Shown: piece by piece, positions 9,363 through 64,000 of the stretch
How positions within the stretch are numbered: the stretch's first letter is position 1
Layout of the letters: each line of letters opens with the position of its first letter
Source of the DNA: an uncultured virus (IMG/VR IMGVR_UViG_2852309159_000005)
Lineage: Duplodnaviria; Heunggongvirae; Uroviricota; Caudoviricetes
Length of the DNA: 64,000 nt
Strand: one strand, 5' to 3'
Virus record (IMG/VR): IMGVR_UViG_2852309159_000005
Location: 1 to 64,000 of that record
Position numbers and translations under genes: made by a program
The notes under the pieces: generated by a model
What the model was told of the DNA's origin: nothing
Database searches by the model: none
What the model saw: the letters and a program-made list of their open reading frames with translations, nothing else

Positions 9363-9635
9363 TTACCTCGCCGTAACCCCGAACTCACTGCTCGGCTGTT
9401 TTGTTTTAACTCCTGAAAATACTGCTACATTAGGTAAGCAACAGTTATCTCCACTTGGATAATGCTTTGTTGGTTTGAGAGAGAGAACAGGGCGTTCTGG
9501 TCTCTCAACGCCAAATATCGAATCCCAAATTTCTTCCACTGAGCGACTTCTCATAGCTATCTTTCGAGCCAAAAACTCACCTTGCTTTCTGCGTCTGCGA
9601 ATTTTTGAGTTCTCTTTAAAAATTATTGTTGCCAT
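9363..9635 (-). CDS. N: N antitermination protein
   Basis: First pL gene after nutL; Arg-rich KIRRRRK; MATIIFKE, LARKIA and SEFGVT resemble phage 21 N; CLPNVA resembles the lambda/P22 N C-terminus. Confidence 0.85.
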   Translation of the reverse strand: MATIIFKENSKIRRRRKQGEFLARKIAMRSRSVEEIWDSIFGVERPERPVLSLKPTKHYPSGDNCCLPNVAVFSGVKTKQPSSEFGVTAR

Positions 9636-9750: not shown

Positions 9751-9793
9751 GCTCTGAAAATTTATTCTGAGCGTTCCTAATTGTAAAAGAGCG
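9751..9793 (-). promoter_or_regulatory. nutL: boxA CGCTCTTTTACA plus boxB GCTC-A-GAA-TAAATT-TTC-A-GAGC
   Basis: Lies between pL and N; mirrors nutR with a compensatory GAA/TTC vs GAG/CTC change. Confidence 0.85.
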
Positions 9794-10592: not shown

Positions 10593-11318
10593 TTAAAACA
10601 GTGCTCGGCCTGTTTTTTCGCAAGCGTCTATATATTTAATTGGTTTAACGATGGCTGACACATAGTGCATGGTGTCAACTTGATCTGGTGATAAAGTTAT
10701 AGGCTTGTGTGAGTTGTTTATACTGGAAAACTGATAGTCTCCATCACGAGTTTTGCTGAAAATTTTAATCATGTTGTGACCTTCTACCGTACGCACAAAA
10801 ACCTCATCGCCAGATCTGACTGTTGTATTTGGCTCAACCACAACAAATTCACCTGACTGAATGCGTGGCCACATACTGTCACCTTTAACCTTCAACCCGT
10901 AGGCGTCTTTATCGTCGCTGTATATCTTCAGCCAGCCATTGTGAGCCTCGATCATATCAACGGCACCATCAACACCTAAGAATGCCTCACCGCGCACCTG
11001 AACCATTCCTGAAGGCACTGTGCCTACATATTCGATTTCATCATCTACCGATTGAGCCAGAGACATTATTTGTTTAGATATTGACGGACTTATATCACTA
11101 ACAGCAACCTTCAATATCTTTGCAAATGTAGCAACTGCGTTCGGGTTTAATGGATTAATTCCATTTAAATAATGACTGACAGCACTTTGGTTGACACCTA
11201 GCTTTTCAGCTATGTCTTCTTGATTTATCCCTAGCGTCTTGCGCTTAGAGGAATAGATTGATTTAAGCCTTCTGGCATCTGCCAGTTGCTCTTCTGATAG
11301 CGGTTTCTTTTTGTTCAT
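10593..11318 (-). CDS. cI: CI repressor (HTH plus S24 autopeptidase)
   Basis: KKPLSEEQLADARRLK, lambda CI-like N-domain; GDSMWP. Confidence 0.95.
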   Translation of the reverse strand: MNKKKPLSEEQLADARRLKSIYSSKRKTLGINQEDIAEKLGVNQSAVSHYLNGINPLNPNAVATFAKILKVAVSDISPSISKQIMSLAQSVDDEIEYVGTVPSGMVQVRGEAFLGVDGAVDMIEAHNGWLKIYSDDKDAYGLKVKGDSMWPRIQSGEFVVVEPNTTVRSGDEVFVRTVEGHNMIKIFSKTRDGDYQFSSINNSHKPITLSPDQVDTMHYVSAIVKPIKYIDACEKTGRALF

Positions 11319-11327
11319 CCCTGCATT

Positions 11328-11395
11328 TTATTACTATAAGTTATATTTTAAAAATACCGTTGGTATTGACTTTTTTATTACCGAATATAATAATT
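11328..11395. promoter_or_regulatory. OR operators with pR/pRM
   Basis: AATACCGTTGGTATT and related palindromes; TTGACT at 11366. Confidence 0.65.
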
Positions 11396-11423: not shown

Positions 11424-11609
11424 ATGAACCAACTAGCTTTACGTGAATATGTCAAGGAGCATGGTCAAGATAAGACGGCTAAAGCAATAGGTGTTACTCA
11501 AGGCGCTATCAGTAAAGCGCTAAGAGAAGGGAGAAATATTCTCTTATCACAAACGGAAAATGGCATTAAAGCAATAGAAATAAAGCCATTTCCAAGCACT
11601 AAAAAATAA
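11424..11609 (+). CDS. cro: Cro repressor
   Basis: GQDKTAKAIGVTQGAISKA...EIKPFPS, lambda Cro-like. Confidence 0.93.
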   Translation: MNQLALREYVKEHGQDKTAKAIGVTQGAISKALREGRNILLSQTENGIKAIEIKPFPSTKK

Positions 11610-11618
11610 TCACCATCA

Positions 11619-11662
11619 CGCTCTTTAACATCGCTAACCCGCTCAGAGTAAATTCTCAGAGC
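11619..11662 (+). promoter_or_regulatory. nutR: boxA CGCTCTTTAACA plus boxB GCTC-A-GAG-TAAATT-CTC-A-GAGC
   Basis: Immediately after cro; consensus boxA; paired with nutL. Confidence 0.88.
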
Positions 11663-12084: not shown

Positions 12085-12253
12085 CAACAACCCAATGAGG
12101 TAATTATGGCAAAGAAACGCCGATTTATCAACCAAAATCAAGAAGAAAGAGTACATCCTGATAGCCCTGATGGGCTATTAGTCGCAGCGGCAAAAAACAG
12201 GAATTTCGGCAAGCGATTTGTCGAAGAGTTTAGAAAGCAACAAGGAGGTCAGC

Positions 12254-26452: not shown

Positions 26453-27523
26453 GTGAATATGCAATCGCAGTTGATGTTAGATAATTCAATGATGATCCAA
26501 ATTCTCCTAGAACGACTCAAAGCTGGCATTGTTGATAGAGAGGAAATGCAAAGAGAGCTAAGGGCGGCTGTTACTAAGGCGTTAGCTAATTTCTCAGGTC
26601 AGATAACATCGAGGTCAAAACTAAACGCCATAATTGCTGAGTTAAAGCGAGAGCTATCACCAGTTCTGACCAGTTACTCTGAGCATTTACTGCAATCTGT
26701 TCTCGATATCGGTGTTGAGTCAAGCCAACTTGAAGTTGATAGCTTATCGCAGATAGTAACAAATGAAGTAAGCAAGCCTGATGCTGAGAAAGTTAAAAAA
26801 GCCATTTTAAATGTGCCGCTGATATTAACCGCTTGGGGCGGCTCTTTATTTCTCAAGAAATTTATATCATCTTGGGTGACTAGCTCTATCCAGCAAGTAG
26901 AGAATCAGACTGTTTTGGCTATGGCTGCTCAAAGTAACATTCAAGTTCTACAGTCCACTATTAATGGGGCTGCAATTGATAAAACACAGGTCTCTACATC
27001 GACGATATCTCGAATTACTTACAACTACAGAACAATTGCAAATACGGCAATTCAGCATGCTCATACATGTGCGGCTCAGGAATTTTATAAGGAGAATGAC
27101 GATTTAATTAAAGAGGAAGAATTCAGCGCAATACTGGACAACAAAACATCATCGACGTGTAGGGCTTTATCAGGAAACCGATATCCTGTTGGGGCTGGCC
27201 CAATGCCACCATTACACCCAAACTGCCGAAGTCAGCGATTGCCAATACTTAATGATAAATTTGCTAATTTGATAATAACTAAACCAATAGGAAGATCTGA
27301 ATGGGGAGAAGAAAGCTATTATGAATGGCTATCTAGGCAACCGGCCAAAAGACAGGATTTAATATTGGGTCCGACTAGAGGGAAGTTGTTTCGTGATGGT
27401 GGTTTATCTCCAGAGCGATTCGCACAGTTGCAGTTACATAAAAACTTTAAACCAATGACACTTAAAGATATGCAAAAGTTTGCGCCTAAAGCGTTTGAGC
27501 GAGCAGGAATTGAATTGAAATAA
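26453..27523 (+). CDS. Head morphogenesis protein (SPP1 gp7/Mu F)
   Basis: LDNKTSSTCRAL...PPLHPNCRS. Confidence 0.88.
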   Translation: MNMQSQLMLDNSMMIQILLERLKAGIVDREEMQRELRAAVTKALANFSGQITSRSKLNAIIAELKRELSPVLTSYSEHLLQSVLDIGVESSQLEVDSLSQIVTNEVSKPDAEKVKKAILNVPLILTAWGGSLFLKKFISSWVTSSIQQVENQTVLAMAAQSNIQVLQSTINGAAIDKTQVSTSTISRITYNYRTIANTAIQHAHTCAAQEFYKENDDLIKEEEFSAILDNKTSSTCRALSGNRYPVGAGPMPPLHPNCRSQRLPILNDKFANLIITKPIGRSEWGEESYYEWLSRQPAKRQDLILGPTRGKLFRDGGLSPERFAQLQLHKNFKPMTLKDMQKFAPKAFERAGIELK

Positions 27524-49231: not shown

Positions 49232-49463
49232 TTATTCTGTCTTCAAATACTGCACAGAATTCGCATCTGGAAACTTCTTACTTCTCTCACGATAAAAACG
49301 CTAATCGTTCATTAAAGTACGCTCTCAAATGTGCTGGTTGTTGTCGTTCAACTTCTGAGGCAACAACTGGCATATTGAGGCGTTCTTTATATGCGACACC
49401 ACTTGCGGCTAAATCGACATTGATTTTGTCTTTTTCTTCTTGAGTTAGGTTTGCGATGTTCAT
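49232..49463 (-). CDS. holE: DNA polymerase III theta subunit homolog (extra T near 49295 truncates the ORF)
   Basis: [22 protein letters not shown]...QPAHLR closely resembles HolE. Confidence 0.88.
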
Positions 49464-49636
49464 AACAGGTCCGGTTAGTTTTTGGAGAGTATAGCAGGGT
49501 GTGGAATTAATGGGACGATTTTGGGACAAGCAACATGAAGCAGCATAAGGCAACTTCAAGTAACTTTAGGTAAGGTGGGACGTGTGAACGCTTGGTGAGA
49601 CTGTATTTAGTTGATATTAAAGCATAATTCTACGCT

Positions 49637-49795: not shown

Positions 49796-49816
49796 TGGGG
49801 GCATAATTGGGGGCAT
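49796..49816 (+). promoter_or_regulatory. P4-type integrase arm sites TGGGGGCAT x2
   Basis: tgggggcataattgggggcat upstream of int; inverted copy at ~49839. Confidence 0.65.
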
Positions 49817-49847: not shown

Positions 49848-51059
49848 ATGAAGCTAACAGCCAGACAAGTAGAGACTTCCAAGCCAAAAGAGAAAGCTTA
49901 TAAACTTTCTGACGGTGGGGGCATGTATTTAGAAGTTGCTCCGAATGGTTCTAAGTATTGGCGTATGAAATATAGATATGCTGGTAAAGAGAAAAGGCTG
50001 GCTTTAGGTGTATACCCATCAATATCACTCGCACAAGCTAGGGCGAAGAGAGAAGAAGCCAAGCGCATATTAGCGTTAGGTGATGATCCATCTTTAGTGA
50101 AGAAAGCAGAAAAGAGAGAGAAAGAATCTCAAGTAAATAATAGCTTTGAAAAAATCACGCTTGAATGGCATGACTATAAAAAGCCGAATTGGTCAAAAGG
50201 TTATGCGGATGATTTACTAGAAGCCTTCCAGAAAGATATCTTTCCTTATATTGGTAAAGTTAGCATTACGGAAATTAAACCGTTAGATATGTTAGAAGTG
50301 CTTCGGAAGTTAGAAAAACGCGGCGTGTTGGATAAACTTAAAAAGATAAGGCAGGCATGTAACCAAGTATTCCGCTATGCAATTGTGACAGGACGGGCCG
50401 AGTATAATCCTGCATCAGAATTAGCCGGCGCACTGTCTACTCCAAAAGCTAAGCATTTTCCTCACTTAAATGTGAATGAGTTACCTGAGTTTTTACAGGC
50501 ACTATCTGTATGTAGTGGAAGTAAGATCACTCAGATTGCGACAAAGCTATTAATGATAACAGGCGTTCGTACTATTGAGCTTAGAGCGGCTGAATGGTCA
50601 GAAATTGATTTTGATAAAGCTATTTGGGAAATTCCAAAAGAACGTATGAAAATGCGTCGCCCTCACATGGTGCCATTATCTACACAGGCCTTAGAATTAT
50701 TCAAAGAAATACAAACCATAACAGGAAAGTTTAAGTATATCTTTCATGGTAGGAATGATGCTTCTAAGCCAATGAGTGAAGCGGCCATAAATCAGGTTAT
50801 CAAGCGTATTGGTTATGATGGTAGAGCCACAGGTCACGGATTCAGACATACAATGAGCACCATCCTACACGAGCAAGGCTATAACACTGCATGGATTGAG
50901 ACACAACTTGCACACGTTGATAAAAACTCTATTCGTGGAACGTATAACCATGCTCAGTATATTGATGGCCGTAGAGAAATGCTTCAATGGTACGCTGATT
51001 ATATGGATACTTTAGAGAACGGGGATAATGTTGTGCACGGTAACTTTAAACGTGCTTAA
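49848..51059 (+). CDS. int: P4/CP4-57 IntA-family integrase
   Basis: YKLSDGGGMYLEV...GSKYWRMKYR; TGVRTIE; HGFRH; YNHAQY. Confidence 0.95.
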   Translation: MKLTARQVETSKPKEKAYKLSDGGGMYLEVAPNGSKYWRMKYRYAGKEKRLALGVYPSISLAQARAKREEAKRILALGDDPSLVKKAEKREKESQVNNSFEKITLEWHDYKKPNWSKGYADDLLEAFQKDIFPYIGKVSITEIKPLDMLEVLRKLEKRGVLDKLKKIRQACNQVFRYAIVTGRAEYNPASELAGALSTPKAKHFPHLNVNELPEFLQALSVCSGSKITQIATKLLMITGVRTIELRAAEWSEIDFDKAIWEIPKERMKMRRPHMVPLSTQALELFKEIQTITGKFKYIFHGRNDASKPMSEAAINQVIKRIGYDGRATGHGFRHTMSTILHEQGYNTAWIETQLAHVDKNSIRGTYNHAQYIDGRREMLQWYADYMDTLENGDNVVHGNFKRA

Positions 51060-51270
51060 CCCACCAGCAGACACATACAGAACCAGACTTTTAAAGGTCT
51101 AGTTTTTTGTACCGAGAAAGGGTATCAATAATATTTAATCATTAAATGTATGATGTGGCTGAATTCTAACTAAGATGAGAAAAATCTTAATATACGCTTA
51201 AGAGTACACTCTAGTAGACGACAATAGACTATGCGAAGATGTGATAAATAAAACTGTTCGTTTCTTAAGC

Positions 51271-51298
51271 TTGACTGTTCATTATTACAGTATAATAT
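51271..51298 (+). promoter_or_regulatory. Sigma70-like promoter overlapped by a LexA box CTGTTCATTATTACAG (51275-51290)
   Basis: TTGACT...TATAAT/TAATAT; exact CTGT-N8-ACAG core. Confidence 0.75.
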
Positions 51299-51332
51299 AC
51301 CTAGTAGTACCGCAGTAGATCATTGTGGACTT

Positions 51333-51965
51333 TGTTCTTTAACATCTTTGCGCTGAAAAAGTGCGCTATGTTCTTTAACAACGATGATAGCGAGTTGTGT
51401 ATTCGCTATCAGAATGGAGTCGCTGATAAAGCGTCCAATGCTCTTTGACAAATTCAGGTATTCCCAGAGTAAATTCTCAGGGGCAATCTGTCACGGTGGC
51501 GCTCTTGAAGCGCTGATATATGAAGTTTTATCTGATTAGTGGTAGAACGTATTTGTAATAAATACAGGACGCTCAGAGGAACTTCTCCGAGCATATAAGT
51601 TTTATTGATAATCTTTATATTAGATTATCAGCTCTTTAAAATATGGATTCCCCCTTAGGTTGTCTTGAGGGGGGCTAATGATAACCTCATTAGTATGTTG
51701 ATGACTTCTCAACATAAATAATATTTGTACGGATAGCTACTTGCTCTTTAAAAATGACCTGCGCTCCTTGCAAACGGGAGCTTTTAGTAAGCAATTTAAT
51801 GCTATTGTTATGTTTACTAAATATATGTATTTCAGGTCGTTAATAGCAATTCGTTAATCTGACTATTCAAATTAGTGATTGTTCTTTGAAATTTTAATGC
51901 TCTGCCTTTGTGGAGTATAGCTGTAGTTCTGTTCTTTTATAATCAATAGCACATGCATCGTGTGC
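51333..51965 (+). promoter_or_regulatory. Tandem array of boxA elements and boxB-like hairpins (nut-like array)
   Basis: boxA-like 12-mers at 51333, 51369, 51439, 51630, 51742, 51880 and 51930, each followed by a hairpin. Confidence 0.8.
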
Positions 51966-52061: not shown

Positions 52062-52091
52062 AACCTTATACATTTATGTATAGGGTTTTTT
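52062..52091 (+). terminator. Intrinsic terminator just upstream of alpA
   Basis: AACCTTATACA-TTTA-TGTATAGGGTT followed by a T-run. Confidence 0.7.
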
Positions 52092-52126
52092 CGCATGTCT
52101 TTTCATATCACATTAAGGAAAATACT

Positions 52127-52324
52127 ATGAATAATCTGATTAGGCTTTCAGAGGTTTTGCGACGCACAGGTTACAGCAAAGCTTGGATTTATAGATTAAT
52201 TAAAGAAAATGACTTTCCTAAACAAGTTAAAATAGGAGCCCGTTCTATTGCTTTCGTTGAGTCGGAAGTCGATGAATGGATCGCTAATAAGATTGCTGAA
52301 TCACGTTCTGGTGAGGTGGCATAA
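52127..52324 (+). CDS. alpA: AlpA-family regulator/excisionase
   Basis: LIRLSEVLRRTGYSKAWIYRLI...FPKQVKIGARSIAFVESEVDEWI. Confidence 0.95.
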   Translation: MNNLIRLSEVLRRTGYSKAWIYRLIKENDFPKQVKIGARSIAFVESEVDEWIANKIAESRSGEVA

Positions 52325-56728: not shown

Positions 56729-57073
56729 ATGATAACGAAGAATTTTAAAGTTAATTCACTAGCGAATAGCTACGCAGCCGCTATTTACCACGATATTACC
56801 ACACGTAATGGCGGTGATTGGTTTTCGATGAAGGTAGGCAACAAAACGATTGAAGTTGCCATTATTGACGGTGTGAAAGGTATTCGAATGCTCGTTGATA
56901 GCTATTTGCTGAAAGCCTTAAAGGGGCAATATCCCACATGGGAGGCAGTTGCTATTAGCTTGATAGAGCAATGTGTCATTAATGGATATGTCACAGGTTA
57001 TGGTCGAGAGGTGTGGCAAAGCATGATTAATGATATGGGCGACTCTTTAGCTGATAAGGGGGCGTTTCAATGA
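56729..57073 (+). CDS. Hypothetical protein preceding the primase
   Basis: RBS; ATGA overlap with the primase. Confidence 0.6.
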   Translation: MITKNFKVNSLANSYAAAIYHDITTRNGGDWFSMKVGNKTIEVAIIDGVKGIRMLVDSYLLKALKGQYPTWEAVAISLIEQCVINGYVTGYGREVWQSMINDMGDSLADKGAFQ

Positions 57074-59818
57074 AGCCGATTGATGTTATCCGTGAGGTGA
57101 AGCTGAAAGCTAACGGACAATGGCAAGCTATATTATCTCACCTTGAGGCAGAAGTGCCCCTAAACACGCACACGGCTTGCCCTCATTGTGGTGGTAAAGA
57201 CCGGTTTAGATTTGATAACAAGGACGGTAATGGCACGTTTATTTGTAATCAGTGCGGTTCTGGTGATGGATTAGATCTCGTTCAGCGTGTGTTAGGTGTC
57301 AGTGTAACCGAAGCTGCAAAAGAGGTTGCTAACATAATTGGTATTGATACCCGTTCAGCGTGTCCACCAGCCTACCGTCGTTCTGAGATAAAAGCACAAC
57401 AAGACGAACTGAAAGCGCAGCAAGCCGAAAAACAAGCTAACGAGAAGAGAGAGAAGCATAAACGCTTTATTGAACGGTATAACCGCACTATTGCCAATGT
57501 TCAACGTGGGAGATCTGACTATCTCAAGGCTAAGGGGCTGCATGGTTTTGAAATGGATTTATTACAGGACGGTTCTCTTATCATTCCATTATTGGACGCT
57601 GGTGGCGTTATTACTGGCGCACAAACTATTAAGCCTAATGGTGATAAGCGTTTACTGTCAGATAGCTCAAAGTCAGGCAGTTATTACCCCATCAATGAGC
57701 CTGTAAACGTCTCTACGGTGATTATCGCTGAAGGATTAGCAACCGCCCTAACGTGTCACTTAATCCAACCAGAAGCGCACACAGTTGCGGCAATTGATGC
57801 GGGAAACCTCATTCATGTAGCTAAGGTAATGCGAGTTAAGTATCCAGAGAGCAAGATTATTATTGCTGGGGATAACGATATTAAGCCAGACCAAGACAAT
57901 ACAGGGAAATTAGCGGCAGAAAAGGCAGCTAAGGCGGTTAATGGTGTCGCAGTTTTACCCCCAACTGATGATAAAGCCGATTGGGATGACTACCGCCTAT
58001 CACACGGTATTGAGGCGGCAAGACAGGCATTTAATGGCCAAGTGGATCAGCAAGCAGGTGAAATAGTGGAAGAGAATAACGTGATCCACATTGACGCAAA
58101 AAAGAAAGTCAGACCTGACGATGACTTAGCCCCATTTTTTGATAAGCGTCATGGTGGTTTGTATTACATCGAACGCAAGCAAAACAATACGACGGGCGAG
58201 ATTGACGAAAAAGAAACGTGGTTTTCGGATGAAATGGCTACGGTAGGTATTGGCTCTGATGGCAAAGACAGCTATTTAGTTATCGAGATGAAGCAAGAAG
58301 GTAGCAACCGCATAATTTATGAAGCCATTCCGAGACGTGAACTAGGTTCGCCTCAAGGGTGGGGGAGGTTACGCTCCCGTGGCGTTAATATTACAACAAA
58401 GCGTGGTCAATTGGATTTATTAGCTAACTACCTTCAACGGAAAGGAAAGCGCGACGAATGGACGATCACACATACCGCAGGTTGGCATGATGGAGCGTAT
58501 GTGATGCCCGATGGTCATATTATTGGTACACCTAGCCGCCCTGTTGCCTTTTGCGGCGGAACGTCTGCCGTTGCGGGTTATATCGTCAGGGGAACCGCTG
58601 AAAGCTGGCGGAAGAATGTCGGTAATTTAATGAAAGGCAACCAATCTATGATTTTAGGTGGTTTAGTTGCGTTAGCTGCCCCACTGAACTCATTATCGGG
58701 CGGTAGCTCGTTTGGCATTCACCTATTCGCTCAATCCTCAGCAGGGAAAACAACTACTGTAGAAGCGGCTTCAAGTATCTACGGTGTACCCGATGAACTG
58801 AAATTAACATGGGATGCGACAAAGTACGGGTTAACGATTGAAGCCGCCTCTCGAAATGATGGATTTATGCCAATTGATGAAATTGGGCAGGGTAACGATG
58901 TGCGGCATGTGGCAGGAAGTGCCTACAGTTTATTTAATGGTACAGGGCGTATTCAAGGTAATAAAGACGGGGGAAACAAAGCCGTTTTACGTTGGGCGAT
59001 TGTGGCGTTATCAACGGGTGAGGAAGATTTTGAAACTTACCTCATTCGTAATGGTGTTACCCCAAAAGCAGGGCAATTAGTGCGACTGGTGAGTGTGCCA
59101 TTTACCGATACTGTCGAGTTTCACAGCCTTGATGATGGTGATTTGCATTCACGAGCAATAAAACGCGCATCAACGCAGCATTGCGGGGCAGTTGGTAGAG
59201 CATGGATTGAGTATTTAGCCAACAATCAGGACATGGCCAACCAGAAAGTGACCGTCAAAGAAAACGAATGGTTATCGAGTTTACCCGAAGAGGCGTCACC
59301 ACAGGTTAAGCGAGTCCGCTACCCGTTTTGCCATGTTAGACGCTACCGCAGAGCTATCAGCCTCAATTACGGGTTGGGATAGTGGCGAATGTAGCCGATT
59401 TATTCGTAATAGCTTCAATGAATGGCTAGAGAACTATGGCACAGGAAACCGAGAAAAATATCAAGTCGTTAAACGGGCAAGGGATTTTATTCAACGCTAT
59501 GGATTAAATCGCTTTCAGCCATACACCTATGGGAAGCGCAACGGAGATTTAGACCGAGTTTACGCAGGAAGAATAACAAACCTTGCGGGTTACTTGGTTT
59601 CTGGTCGCAGAGAGGACGGCAAGGACGAATATCATATTATCCCGTCAGTATTTGAAGATGAAATACTCTCAGGTATTCAAAAGAAATTGGGGGCGGAAGC
59701 GCTCGAAGAGGCAGGTATTTTAGTCAGACCGGAATCAGGGCGTGTAGACGGTAAAACTATCAGCATTAATGGTAGTCAGCAGCGATTTGTTGTCTTAATT
59801 GATAGCGAGGAAGAATAA
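57070..59818 (+). CDS. Primase-helicase (Zn finger, TOPRIM, DUF927); frameshift near 59315-59330
   Basis: CPHCGGKDRFRFD; AEGLATA; AGDND; GWHDGAYVMPDG; SSAGKTT. Confidence 0.92.
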
Positions 59819-60137: not shown

Positions 60138-60576
60138 ATGAGCACTCAAATACTCACACTAAAACGTAAAAAATCCACCAGCAACGAACACACCAAAAAG
60201 CTTGCAAACTAAAACGCCACAGGAAGCCTCGCAGCAACCGAAGAAGAAAAATAAGGCAGATGTTCACGCGAAGAAGAAACAACACCGTATTGACCGTATA
60301 GCGAAGCACTGGACGATATTTAATGAGCCAGAGGCTAAACCACTGATGATAGGTATCAAGGAAGTCATGATTGCTGAGGTTAAAGATAAAGGGTTGGATA
60401 TTCCAGAGAGCCATATTAAACAGGGATTACGATCATACATTAGTCGTAAAACCTATCTGAAAGCCCTTACTCTGGGCGGTAATCGTTTTGATATGAACGG
60501 GCAGCCTAAAGGAGAAATCACACCTCAACAACAAGCATTAGCAAAACAAATGCTGGTGGAATGGGGGAGACAATAA
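60138..60576 (+). CDS. ProQ/FinO-domain protein (5' frameshift)
   Basis: KPLMIGI...LRSYISRKTYLKAL..GGNRFDMNGQPKGEIT. Confidence 0.85.
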
Positions 60577-60970: not shown

Positions 60971-61312
60971 ATGACAGGAAAATTTATTCAACAATTTGAG
61001 CGTAAAAATGCCATCGTGAATATAAATACATCGGATGGCATAAAGTCACTTGCTGTCGTGTTTCGTCTCCCCAAAGACCCTAATACACAAAGTTATCTTC
61101 GAATGATCCAGGCTATTCCTGAAATGTCACCTACGGAAATTTTGCTTGAGGTTATCGAAGCATGGGAATTTGATGAGTCGCTTAACTCAGCCAATATGAC
61201 TAAGTTGATTGATAATTGTCCTCAGGCCGCATTTGCCATCATGGAAGCGTTTGGGCGTTTGATTCATTCTCGTGAAATACAACAAATCTGGGGGCAAAAA
61301 TGGCTGATGTAG
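60971..61312 (+). CDS. Phage tail assembly chaperone (TAC_4-like)
   Basis: EVIEAWEFDESLNSANMTKLIDNCPQAAFAI; overlaps the tape measure start. Confidence 0.65.
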   Translation: MTGKFIQQFERKNAIVNINTSDGIKSLAVVFRLPKDPNTQSYLRMIQAIPEMSPTEILLEVIEAWEFDESLNSANMTKLIDNCPQAAFAIMEAFGRLIHSREIQQIWGQKWLM

Positions 61313-64000
61313 CAACAATTTCGCTTGAGGTGAGAACGTCTGACTTAGAGCGCGGTACGCAAAAGTTAAAAGAGTTTGGAGATACAGCCGAAAAGGTGAG
61401 TAGTTTCTTCGCGAAATTTAAATGACCAGTTTAATAAAGGGGTTGGTCACCAAAAAAAAATTTCTGATGTAATAAAAAAGCAAAGGGAAGAATTTGATAA
61501 TTTACTTAACTCGATAAATCCAACCAATAAAGCGTTTCAAAAACTAGATGAATGGCAAGCTAAATTAGCTAGCGCTAGCAAAAAAGGTATTTACCCAAGT
61601 GATGAGATTGCAAAGTATAACGCCATACTTGAGCAGACTAGAGATAAATTAACACGAGTTAATATGTCCCTTACTGCTGAAGGGCAGGCGCTATTAGCTC
61701 AAGAGGCGGCAACAAATAGAGCTAAGCGAGCTGCTGATGATTTTTTAAATTCACTGAAAAATCAAACTGAAATCATAGGAAAAACGAGGACAGAGATTTT
61801 AGAGTTAAAAGCAGCACAACTTGGTGTGTCGCAACAAGCCGCGCCGATGATCAATAAGCTAAAAGAGCAAGAAAAAGCCTTTATGAATGGCTCAATTACC
61901 ATTGGCCAATATCGAAACGCTATGCGGCAATTGCCAGCCCAAATGACAGATATTGTTACGTCATTAGCATCAGGAATGCCTGTTTGGATGGTGATGATAC
62001 AACAAGGGGGGCAGATAAAGGACTCATTTGGTGGTATAGGTAATTCATTGAAGGCTGTAACTTCATTAATCACTCCGTTAAATGTAGGGCTTGCTGCCGC
62101 TGCTTTAGCCGTGGGAGGTTTGAGTTATGCGACATTCAAAGCCCAGATGGTACAGGAAGCCTTTAACCGAGCATTAATAACATCAGGTAAGTATGCTGGG
62201 CTTTCTCGAGGGGAAATTATTGGTTATGCGAACACCATTACTCAAGCTGGGCTAAGTGCTGATTCAGCCACAGAATCACTTACTAAGCTATTAGACGCGG
62301 GGTTAAAAATAGGTGTCGACATTGGCAAGGCTGGAAATGCTATTGCGGAATTTTCCCGTTATTCAGGTAAAAGCATTGATTCGCTTGTCTCGCATTTTGC
62401 ACGATTATCTAATGATCCGTATGGTGGTTCTATTGAACTAAATAAACAGTATCGCTATTTAAGCGCTTCTGTATTACAGCACATTAAAGAACTAGAAGAC
62501 CAAGGAAAGACCACGGAAGCCGTAACATATGCTACTGACGCATTAAGTGGAGCGATGGCAGATCGCGCAAATGAAATACGTTCAAGCATGGGGACACTAC
62601 CAAGCTTTTTTGATGAGATTGGACGTGCTGCTAATAAAATGTGGGATTCGGTGATGGGGCTTGGTGCTGATCCTTCCAAAGCTGAACGATTAGCTAAACT
62701 AGAACAACAAATAAAGTTTGCTAAATCTGATCCTCGGAGGGGTACAGATAAAAGAAAAGGGCTTTCTTATAAAGATGATAAAGAATTGGAACTTCTAGAA
62801 AAGGAAAGGGATGAGTTACTAAAATCAATTGAAGCTGATAAAAAGGCAGCAGAACTCCAAGAGCGTAGTATTAACAACCAAGTATATTTTAATCAACTGG
62901 TTGATAAAGGCACAGATAATGCCGAGAAACGCAGGAGGGAGCACGAAAAATTAAATAAAGCTATACAGGATAATATTGAGCTAGCGAAAAAAGGTGAAGT
63001 CAAACTCTGGACAGATGAACAAATAAAAATGGCCAGAGAAGGAATTGATAAAGCTTTTAAGGATCCGGTTAAACGTAAACCGACTTTTCATAAAGCTGCT
63101 TTTGCAGGAATGCGCCGTGATGAAGGCACTCAAAGTCATGTCATTGCGTTAAAAGCTGAGCTTGAGATGTTGAGTCAAGAAAGCCGACATATAGGCACAA
63201 TTAGTCAGCAACGTAGGGCATTATGGCAAGAGCAAGCTAAGTTTCAAATTCTTGAGCAAGCCAATAAAGAACGAACACTGAGCTTGGAAGAACGAGCCTT
63301 ATTAGCAAGAAAAGACTCAATATTGGCAGAAAAAGAAAAGGCCGCCAGTATTGGAGATCAGATAGAGCAACAGAAACAGTTAAATCAGTTACGTTATTCC
63401 AATGATGACCTTAAAGCTGAGATCGAACTACGCAAAGCAACGATAGGAATGACTAACGAACAAATAGCACAACAAAGAGAACTACTCAAATTAAAAATGG
63501 AGTGGACTAAAAAAGGAGGGGCTGAAACGGATGAAGAATACCTACGTGGTGTAGATTTAATTCAGGAAAAATATGAAACAGAAAGCTGGCTACGTGAGCA
63601 ATGGCGCGAAGGAGTTAAGAAAGCATATGCAGAATATGTGATTAGTGTTACAGATGCAAATGCGGCAGCACAACAATTAACTAAACAAGCTTTTGATAGC
63701 ATGACGGGGGCAATGACTGACTTTCTAACGAAAAGCAAAGCTAGTTTTAAAGATTATGCTGCTAGTTTCTTTAATTTGGCAACAAAAATGATCGTCCAGC
63801 TTACAACGATAAGAATGTTAGAGGCTGGGCTTGGTGGTACAACACTTGGTAATTTTTTAGGGATAAAAGGGCATGCCACAGGTGGCTATACTGGTGATGG
63901 TGGTAAATATGACCCCGCAGGTGTAGTACATAAAGGCGAGTTCGTCTTTACCAAGGAAGCAACGCAACGACTAGGTGTGGATAATCTCTATCGACTAATG
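61300..64000 (+). CDS. Lambda gpH-type tape measure protein carried by the satellite (extra T near 61405; runs off the window, absent from the ORF track)
   Basis: Hand translation: GQYRNAMRQLPAQMTDIVTSLASG...QQGGQIKDSFGG and HATGGYTGDGGKYDPAGVVHKGEFVFTKEATQRLGVDNLYRLM, both gpH hallmarks; frame open from ~61406 to the end. Confidence 0.92.

Follow-up and report, generated by a model that had tools for sequence, protein, structure and literature searches.

In lambdoid phages such as lambda, P22 and 933W, the nutL and nutR sites consist of a boxA that is followed by a boxB hairpin on the nascent RNA, with a promoter upstream and terminators downstream, and there is one such site per phage operon. 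The N protein acts in trans, on whichever transcript bears its nut site, and its target in lambda is the arrangement of a promoter, a nut site, a terminator and a gene. Laboratory constructs in which N is assayed in trans are built of a promoter, nut, a terminator and a reporter, which is the same logic as that of the satellite leader described here. Also phage satellites are known to sense an early helper product in order to start their cycle: SaPIs are derepressed by helper proteins and P4 is activated by the Cox protein of P2, in both cases by protein-protein or protein-DNA contacts and with one partner. Gram-negative PICIs such as EcCICFT073 have co-oriented int, alpA, Bro/Rha-type and primase genes together with captured late genes, as laid out in PMC6092414 and PMC10111431. 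According to PMC6092414, alpA of EcCICFT073 is a switch that is turned on by helper phages, with the inducer "under study" in 2018, and AlpA activates its own promoter. PMC10111431, which covers the general layout of Gram-negative PICIs, has 0 occurrences of nut or boxA, and in the full-text literature, a body that leaves out most subscription journals, no paper was found in which satellites or alpA are connected with nut, boxA or N.

Here a satellite of this kind is analysed, in which an array of eight nut-like units lies in the untranslated leader between a consensus promoter and a strong terminator before alpA. Judged by its sequence, the leader between int and alpA is probably an N-responsive antitermination switch, by which the N of any cognate helper phage would turn alpA on. 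The window, i.e. the whole stretch of DNA that was analysed, comprises the first 64 kb of a 73,413-bp IMG/VR provirus record, which probably comes from Morganella, judging by the integrase of the satellite. A lambdoid prophage spans position 1 to ~49.3 kb and carries int, RecT, N, cI, cro, cII, O, DnaB, Q, lysis and tail genes, with cI at 10593-11318 on the minus strand and cro at 11424-11609 on the plus strand. The PICI-like Gram-negative satellite starts at 49.8 kb and has every gene on the plus strand, including the integrase gene (49848..51059; Pfam Arm-DNA-bind_3, Phage_int_M and Phage_integrase), the product of which is 92-93% identical to Morganella copies, the alpA gene (52127..52324), which encodes 65 aa from an ATG with a ribosome-binding site (Pfam Phage_AlpA, E 7e-21, the match lying on 52076-52324), and a Toprim/DUF927 primase gene (57070-59382, assigned by Pfam). 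Int, alpA and the primase are thereby co-oriented like in the Gram-negative PICIs, and further proteins of the satellite are Rha, Ash and ORF6N. With P4-like satellites the element has only Ash and the Toprim/DUF927 primase in common, and no match to the Psu, Sid or Delta families was found among its 17 + 4 ORFs. A 20-bp direct repeat, GGGGGCATAATTGGGGGCAT, at 49797..49816 (plus strand) is the likely left att site. Its second copy is found beyond the window at record positions 69373-69392 (L337 5373-5392), and as the two copies bracket the region from int through the tape-measure gene, they suggest a satellite of 19.6 kb with its right end outside the window. The satellite itself encodes no N, as none of the ORFs found in it is arginine-rich and N-like.

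An N gene is present in the neighbouring prophage, where it lies on the minus strand downstream of PL and nutL (9363..9635) and encodes an antiterminator of 90 aa with an arginine-rich N-terminus. It matches Pfam N_peptide with an E-value of 8.7e-6 and 26.6 bits, just below the curated cut-off of 27.9. With the N-like ORF of Morganella phage IME1369_01 it shares 33% identity, the arginine-rich stretches being different. The nutL site (9751..9793, minus strand; -10.2 kcal/mol, z -2.8) is composed of boxA CGCTCTTTTACAA at 9793-9781 and a boxB hairpin at 9772-9751, and the nutR site (11619..11662, plus strand; -9.2 kcal/mol, z -3.2), which follows just after cro, is composed of boxA CGCTCTTTAACAT at 11619-11631 and a boxB hairpin at 11641-11662.

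In the satellite, the plus strand of the 1,067-nt spacer between int and alpA has no ORF of at least 60 aa. A hairpin with a U-run after the int stop codon (51085..51108, plus strand; -9.1 kcal/mol, z -2.0) is the likely int terminator and likely insulates the leader from int. The leader promoter, TTGACT-16-TAATAT, is found at 51271..51298 on the plus strand, and an intrinsic terminator with an 11-bp stem and U6 (52062..52091, plus strand; -16.8 kcal/mol, z -4.0) lies ~35 nt before the alpA start. With prophage PR (11366-11395), the region of the leader promoter (51271-51300) has TTGACT and the spacing to TATAAT in common, and it contains a TATTAC half-site that resembles the prophage operators; a control of the satellite promoter by cI is doubtful, as the putative operator would be 2 bp shorter than that of the prophage.

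All eight units between promoter and terminator are on the plus strand. Unit 1 (51333..51365) has boxA TGTTCTTTAACAT and a 5-bp hairpin with a GAAAA loop, and unit 2 (51369..51437) has boxA TGTTCTTTAACAA, a long hairpin at 51385-51411 and a hairpin with a GAUAA loop at 51415-51437, together folding with -23.2 kcal/mol (z -3.5). Unit 3 (51439..51483) consists of boxA TGCTCTTTGACAA and a hairpin at 51462-51483, the core of which is identical in 16/16 positions to the nutR boxB of the prophage. Unit 4 (51571..51592; z -2.6) is a hairpin with a GAACUU loop and an A.C mismatch and has no adjacent boxA, with a weak boxA-like motif, CGCTCTTGAA, upstream at 51500-51509. Unit 5 (51630..51674) has boxA AGCTCTTTAAAAT and an 11-bp hairpin (-18 kcal/mol), unit 6 (51742..51781) has boxA TGCTCTTTAAAAA and the hairpin GCTCCTTGCAAACGGGAGC followed by UUUU and was also classed as terminator-like, unit 7 (51880..51918) has boxA TGTTCTTTGAAAT and a hairpin with the core CTCTGCCTTTGTGGAG, and unit 8 (51930..51965) has boxA TGTTCTTTTATAA and the hairpin GCACATGCATCGTGTGC. 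In all seven boxA-bearing units the boxA is unpaired and is followed by the hairpin after a spacer of ~4-20 nt, and within the 1 kb before alpA there are seven boxA-like motifs in sense and none in antisense direction. The array thus lies between a promoter and a terminator on one strand, as nut sites do, and Rfam gave no match to the leader at E-values up to 1. Between units 5 and 6 there is a further hairpin without boxA (51694-51716, ATGTTGA...TCAACAT, z -2.5) that is conserved in five of six leaders.

Since N acts on just such a lambda-like arrangement of promoter, nut, terminator and gene, the leader can be read as a switch that would hold alpA off until a cognate N is made. The near-consensus sigma-70 promoter would start an untranslated RNA of ~800 nt that bears the seven combinations of single-stranded boxA and hairpin and the one hairpin alone, and by default this RNA would end at the terminator at 52062-52091, or earlier by way of Rho, and alpA would be silent. 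When a lambdoid phage is induced from a resident prophage or infects the cell, its immediate-early N would bind the unit whose boxB it recognises, N would assemble with NusA, NusB, NusE and NusG on the polymerase, transcription would read through into alpA, and AlpA would then turn the satellite on. With the boxB of the neighbour in unit 3 and the boxB types of different phages in other units, the array would detect helpers over a broad range. Compared with the lambdoid nut sites, it is different that eight tandem units of apparently differing specificity are present instead of one site per operon, and that the array resides on a satellite that has no N of its own and would control alpA. Compared with the laboratory constructs, the satellite leader would be natural, multi-specific and wired to the activator of a mobile element. 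For a Pseudomonas AlpA, an action as antiterminator is described in PMC7969949, and we infer that either such an antitermination or the self-activation known from EcCICFT073 would amplify the signal in the satellite.

The similarity between unit 3 and the prophage, which had drawn attention to the locus in a first-pass annotation, is exact over the 16-mer CAGAGTAAATTCTCAG, which occurs at nutR (11644-11659, plus strand) and in the satellite (51465-51480, plus strand) and nowhere else in the window. As had been noted, both copies are preceded by a boxA, CGCTCTTTAA at 11619 and TGCTCTTTGA at 51439, with 12-13 nt in between at nutR as well as in the satellite hairpin 51462-51483. With up to three mismatches, five sites are found in the window against 0.98 expected, a number that none of 100 shuffled sequences reached. 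These include nutL (9754-9769, minus strand, two mismatches) and the second satellite hairpin (51574-51589, three mismatches); a similar site at 26666 was taken as an unrelated chance match. NutL, nutR and the two satellite hairpins do indeed fold alike, with a lower stem, one mismatch, a 3-bp GAG/CUC stem and a 6-nt loop, and the second family member that had been proposed at 51571-51592 is real, matching the nutR region in 21/24 positions without having a boxA directly upstream. The compensatory change that had been claimed for the lower stem is smaller than it was said to be, as two pairs differ and the other two are unchanged, but the pairing is kept: the 22-nt hairpins of nutR and unit 3 are identical in 18/22 positions, and the four differences make up two base pairs that are both still paired (G-C to U.G and U-A to C-G). 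When four random substitutions were simulated, all seven pairs were kept in 5.7% of the trials, and the observed pattern of two doubly changed pairs that are both kept appeared in 0.06%.

Extended to a family of nine hairpins, in which the phage nutL and nutR are joined by units 3 and 4 from four satellites, the comparison gave 98.4% of cells paired and three pairs that change on both sides, G.U pairs being among the covarying ones. The covariation score was reached by none of 500 shuffles, and controls with a slid register were 8-67% paired. A scan of IMG/VR with the 22-nt hairpin pattern returned 93 stretches, from which 80 loci on 47 contigs were taken, and in 33 of these 47 contigs the boxB class of units 3 and 4 occurs in the arrangement of nutL and nutR, with one copy on the minus and one on the plus strand at a distance of 1.3-3.9 kb; three of the 14 contigs with a single copy are sibling satellites. 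This boxB class is a real class of phage nut sites, and its occurrence at paired nutL/nutR positions, along with the covariation, supports the earlier suggestion that the RNA structure is under selection. After collapsing, 37 distinct contexts remain, 23 with the nutR form and five with the nutL form, and among the 37 there are six with the GAACTT loop of unit 4, two with a C at the mismatch as in unit 4, and eight phage contexts in which there is no boxA within 45 nt and the hairpin, as in unit 4, follows GGAAC. A genome-wide pattern with two degenerate positions in the 16-mer was too permissive, with at least 120 matches that were mostly chance hits in unrelated phyla, and the only relevant ones among the matches listed were in Providencia stuartii and Morganella morganii H1r, both being phage nutL sites.

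Unit 3 is not the only unit with a counterpart in phages. Seven of the eight units have their counterparts among the nutL and nutR sites of distinct Morganellaceae phages, their boxB classes being found at the nutL/nutR positions of N-encoding phages, and the array as a whole matches nut sites from at least seven types of phage, that of the neighbour included. When 50,697 phage records were searched by blastn with the leader, 14 of them matched, and three of these were used; the other 11, from uncultured, Bacteroides, Staphylococcus, Campylobacter, Enterococcus and Acinetobacter phages (E 0.2-3), were dropped as chance. Unit 2 matches nutL of Morganella phage IME1369_01 over 64 nt with 87.5% identity (E 1e-12), at a position between a PL-like promoter and the N-like ORF. 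Unit 8 matches Providencia phage PSTCR7lys over 38 nt with 89.5% identity (E 6e-3), and unit 1 is identical in 28/34 positions to a site in Providencia phage PSTNGR2lys, the blastn match of 29 nt with 89.7% identity (E 3) being weak alone. In both Providencia phages, the match starts 7 nt past the stop codon of the annotated cro. Unit 4 is identical in 25/28 positions to IMG/VR phage sites that also lack a boxA and have GGAAC before the hairpin, as in nutL. The 17-nt hairpin core of unit 6 is found in eight IMG/VR phage loci, of which six make up three pairs of opposite orientation and one is located directly behind a cro-like gene and ahead of cII. The hairpin of unit 7 agrees in 15/16 positions with a site that four IMG/VR phage contigs have behind a cro-like gene. 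An extra unit that is present in sibling satellites was found in one IMG/VR phage. In each of three IMG/VR loci that were annotated, the match directly follows a cro-like gene, opposite to an S24 repressor gene, and cII, ydaT or O genes come after it. For unit 5 no phage cognate was found, as seven of its ten matches are not from satellites and these have no hairpin or boxA context.

These matches bear on the possibility that the leader is antiterminated without any N, like rRNA operons, with boxA recruiting NusB and NusE, the leader always being shielded from Rho and the hairpins being incidental. A leader of ~800 nt without ORF would agree with such a function, and so would the boxA motifs, e.g. 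TGTTCTTTAACAA, which we take to be close to the rrn consensus. However, seven of the eight hairpins match boxB of distinct phages, the order of boxA and then hairpin is that of phage nut sites and not the boxB-boxA-boxC that precedes rRNA genes, and the gene downstream is alpA. A constitutive readthrough into an excision activator would be costly, and the strong intrinsic terminator downstream speaks against it as well, so that a shielding of the rrn type is quite improbable.

Similar arrays are present in eight other satellites, in which units have been gained and lost. Among 80 loci of AlpA relatives, three have at least three sense boxA motifs before alpA, namely those of Providencia alcalifaciens (6), Proteus myxofaciens (3) and an Enterobacter MAG (6), the other 77 having 0-1, and among 80 relatives of the integrase, arrays were seen in Pantoea septica and Mixta. 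Three sibling satellites in IMG/VR have the same leader. The boxA counts in the eight other leaders are 6, 3, 6, 4, 4, 8, 8 and 8 in sense and 0, 0, 0, 0, 1, 0, 0 and 0 in antisense direction, which adds up to 54 to 1 over all nine arrays. It could be argued that the repeats function at the level of DNA, as operators or as binding sites for Int, AlpA or a repressor, and the spacer between int and alpA is the place where such repeated short motifs would be expected; but this strict strand bias, 7 to 0 in the present leader, the maintenance of pairing through G.U pairs, which are relevant in RNA only, and the fact that the units match phage nut sites and not operators leave it with very little probability.

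The more distant arrays contain the boxB hairpins of well-known phages. Among the eight, two have hairpins of the lambda type and two of the Stx-phage type, and the boxB sequences common to phages and arrays include the complete lambda cores in the Enterobacter and Mixta arrays (nutL 13/13 in L213, nutR 11/11 in L025). Matches to units of these two arrays are found in 159 and 187 phage records, most of them from Stx-converting and P22-like phages, and they include the depositor-annotated nutR boxA/boxB of phages mEp234 and epsilon34. The Enterobacter leader found nothing in E. coli genomes. No boxA array is present in the int-alpA spacer of EcCICFT073, in which respect this PICI differs from the satellite analysed here, and three other E. 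coli alpA loci are without array, too, and the array is therefore a trait of a subfamily and not a general PICI mechanism.

When the six Morganellaceae leaders are aligned, promoter and terminator are conserved while the units come and go as modules: unit 2 is missing in Providencia, four leaders have an extra unit, and unit 8 has been replaced. The leader promoter is kept in six of six leaders, with one base changed in L205, and a 22-nt core of the terminator is identical in all six and was found, in both collections, only in these elements. This conservation is relevant to the idea that the array is a decoy, constitutively transcribed to soak up the N of the helper together with Nus factors and thereby to hinder the phage. 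A near-consensus strong promoter that drives eight binding units on one RNA would suit a decoy, and interference with helpers is common among satellites according to PMC6092414, but a decoy needs neither a conserved strong terminator ~35 nt before alpA nor a fixed placement between promoter and alpA, which is seen in nine of nine arrays. As the polymerase that is modified by N is the one that makes the nut RNA, N binding on a decoy would itself cause readthrough, and the roles as decoy and as switch are compatible and may coexist. Taken as the explanation of the array, the decoy is unlikely.

The units could also be non-functional leftovers of exchanges with phage immunity regions, as satellites and lambdoid phages are mosaic and the sibling composites differ in blocks. 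Each phage match is confined, however, to the boxA-boxB segment (29-70 nt) without any flanking phage coding sequence, the units all have the same orientation and order, the pairing of the hairpins is preserved, and the arrays recur in two satellite branches and six genera, all of which makes mere debris a highly improbable origin.

With the leader read as an N-responsive switch, it can be asked whether the neighbouring prophage is the partner of the satellite. The first-pass annotation had proposed that the satellite copies the nut site of the adjacent prophage, and unit 3 does match nutR of the neighbour, but this description is too narrow, because six other units of the eight match nut sites of other phages, because unit 3 is found also in satellites whose host or neighbouring prophage lacks such a boxB, and because adjacency and match coincide in only one of four prophage-satellite composites. 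Unit 3 is present also in the Proteus myxofaciens satellite and in the three sibling satellites. The three sibling records contain the same satellite next to prophages of other immunity types, the unit 3 core being found in the satellite only, and no hairpin match between the leader and the own prophage was found in these three records, where the candidate nut sites differ. Also in Proteus and Providencia genomes the boxB core of units 3 and 4 was found in the satellite alone, with a pattern that would miss a nutL-type variant, and the loose core pattern used on these genomes gave as many control matches as real ones. Unit 3 predates this neighbourhood, and the neighbour is only one possible inducer of the satellite. 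An N of the neighbour's type as cognate inducer, which had been put forward as well, would fit the anatomy of promoter, nut units, terminator and alpA. In the prophages of two sibling records (G007 11564-11610 and G008 12172-12220), a boxA, CGCTCTTTAAAAA, follows cro and is in turn followed by a different, weaker hairpin that has no counterpart among the units of the satellite array.

Several observations count against the switch. The lower stem of unit 3 differs from that of the phage, unit 4 has no adjacent boxA, unit 5 has no phage cognate, and the blastn match of unit 1 has an E-value of 3. Arrays are found in only 3/80 loci of AlpA relatives, and EcCICFT073, for which helper-dependent alpA induction has been shown, has none. 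In three of four composites the neighbouring prophage is without a unit-matching site, and the prophage N narrowly misses the Pfam cut-off. If the leader nevertheless functions as an N-responsive switch, this subfamily would possess a sensor made of RNA, by which the antitermination machinery of the phage is turned to the use of the satellite. In contrast to the contacts of SaPIs and P4, sensing would here be done by RNA and would read many partners, which would account for one satellite of this subfamily answering many helpers, and the helper phages of the subfamily could be read directly from sequence. We give about even chances to the further idea that the subfamily keeps a modular, updatable library of boxB hairpins from local lambdoid phages, in which sensing of N leads to satellite induction and units are swapped as the phages change, so that the array would record which helpers can be exploited.

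A relative of the leader is present in RNA-library run X1, of which there are contigs only, so that level, ends and strand are not readable. Apart from the leader, the satellite has a gene for an RNA-binding protein with a ProQ/FinO domain (60202-60576), and this protein might act on the structured leader RNA. Further downstream follow genes for a tail assembly chaperone (60971-61312) and a lambda-type tape-measure protein (61664-64000, running on into L337), which would fit the zone of captured late genes of Gram-negative PICIs as described in PMC10111431, or a role in tail interference. An abortive-infection gene of the Abi_2 family lies within the putative satellite at L337 1423-2463, i.e. 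record positions 65423-66463 (Pfam E 1.8e-50). At the other end, between the tail-fibre gene of the prophage and the satellite, there is a gene for a HolE-like protein (DNA polymerase III theta) on the minus strand (49287-49559), which is common to all four prophage-satellite composites.
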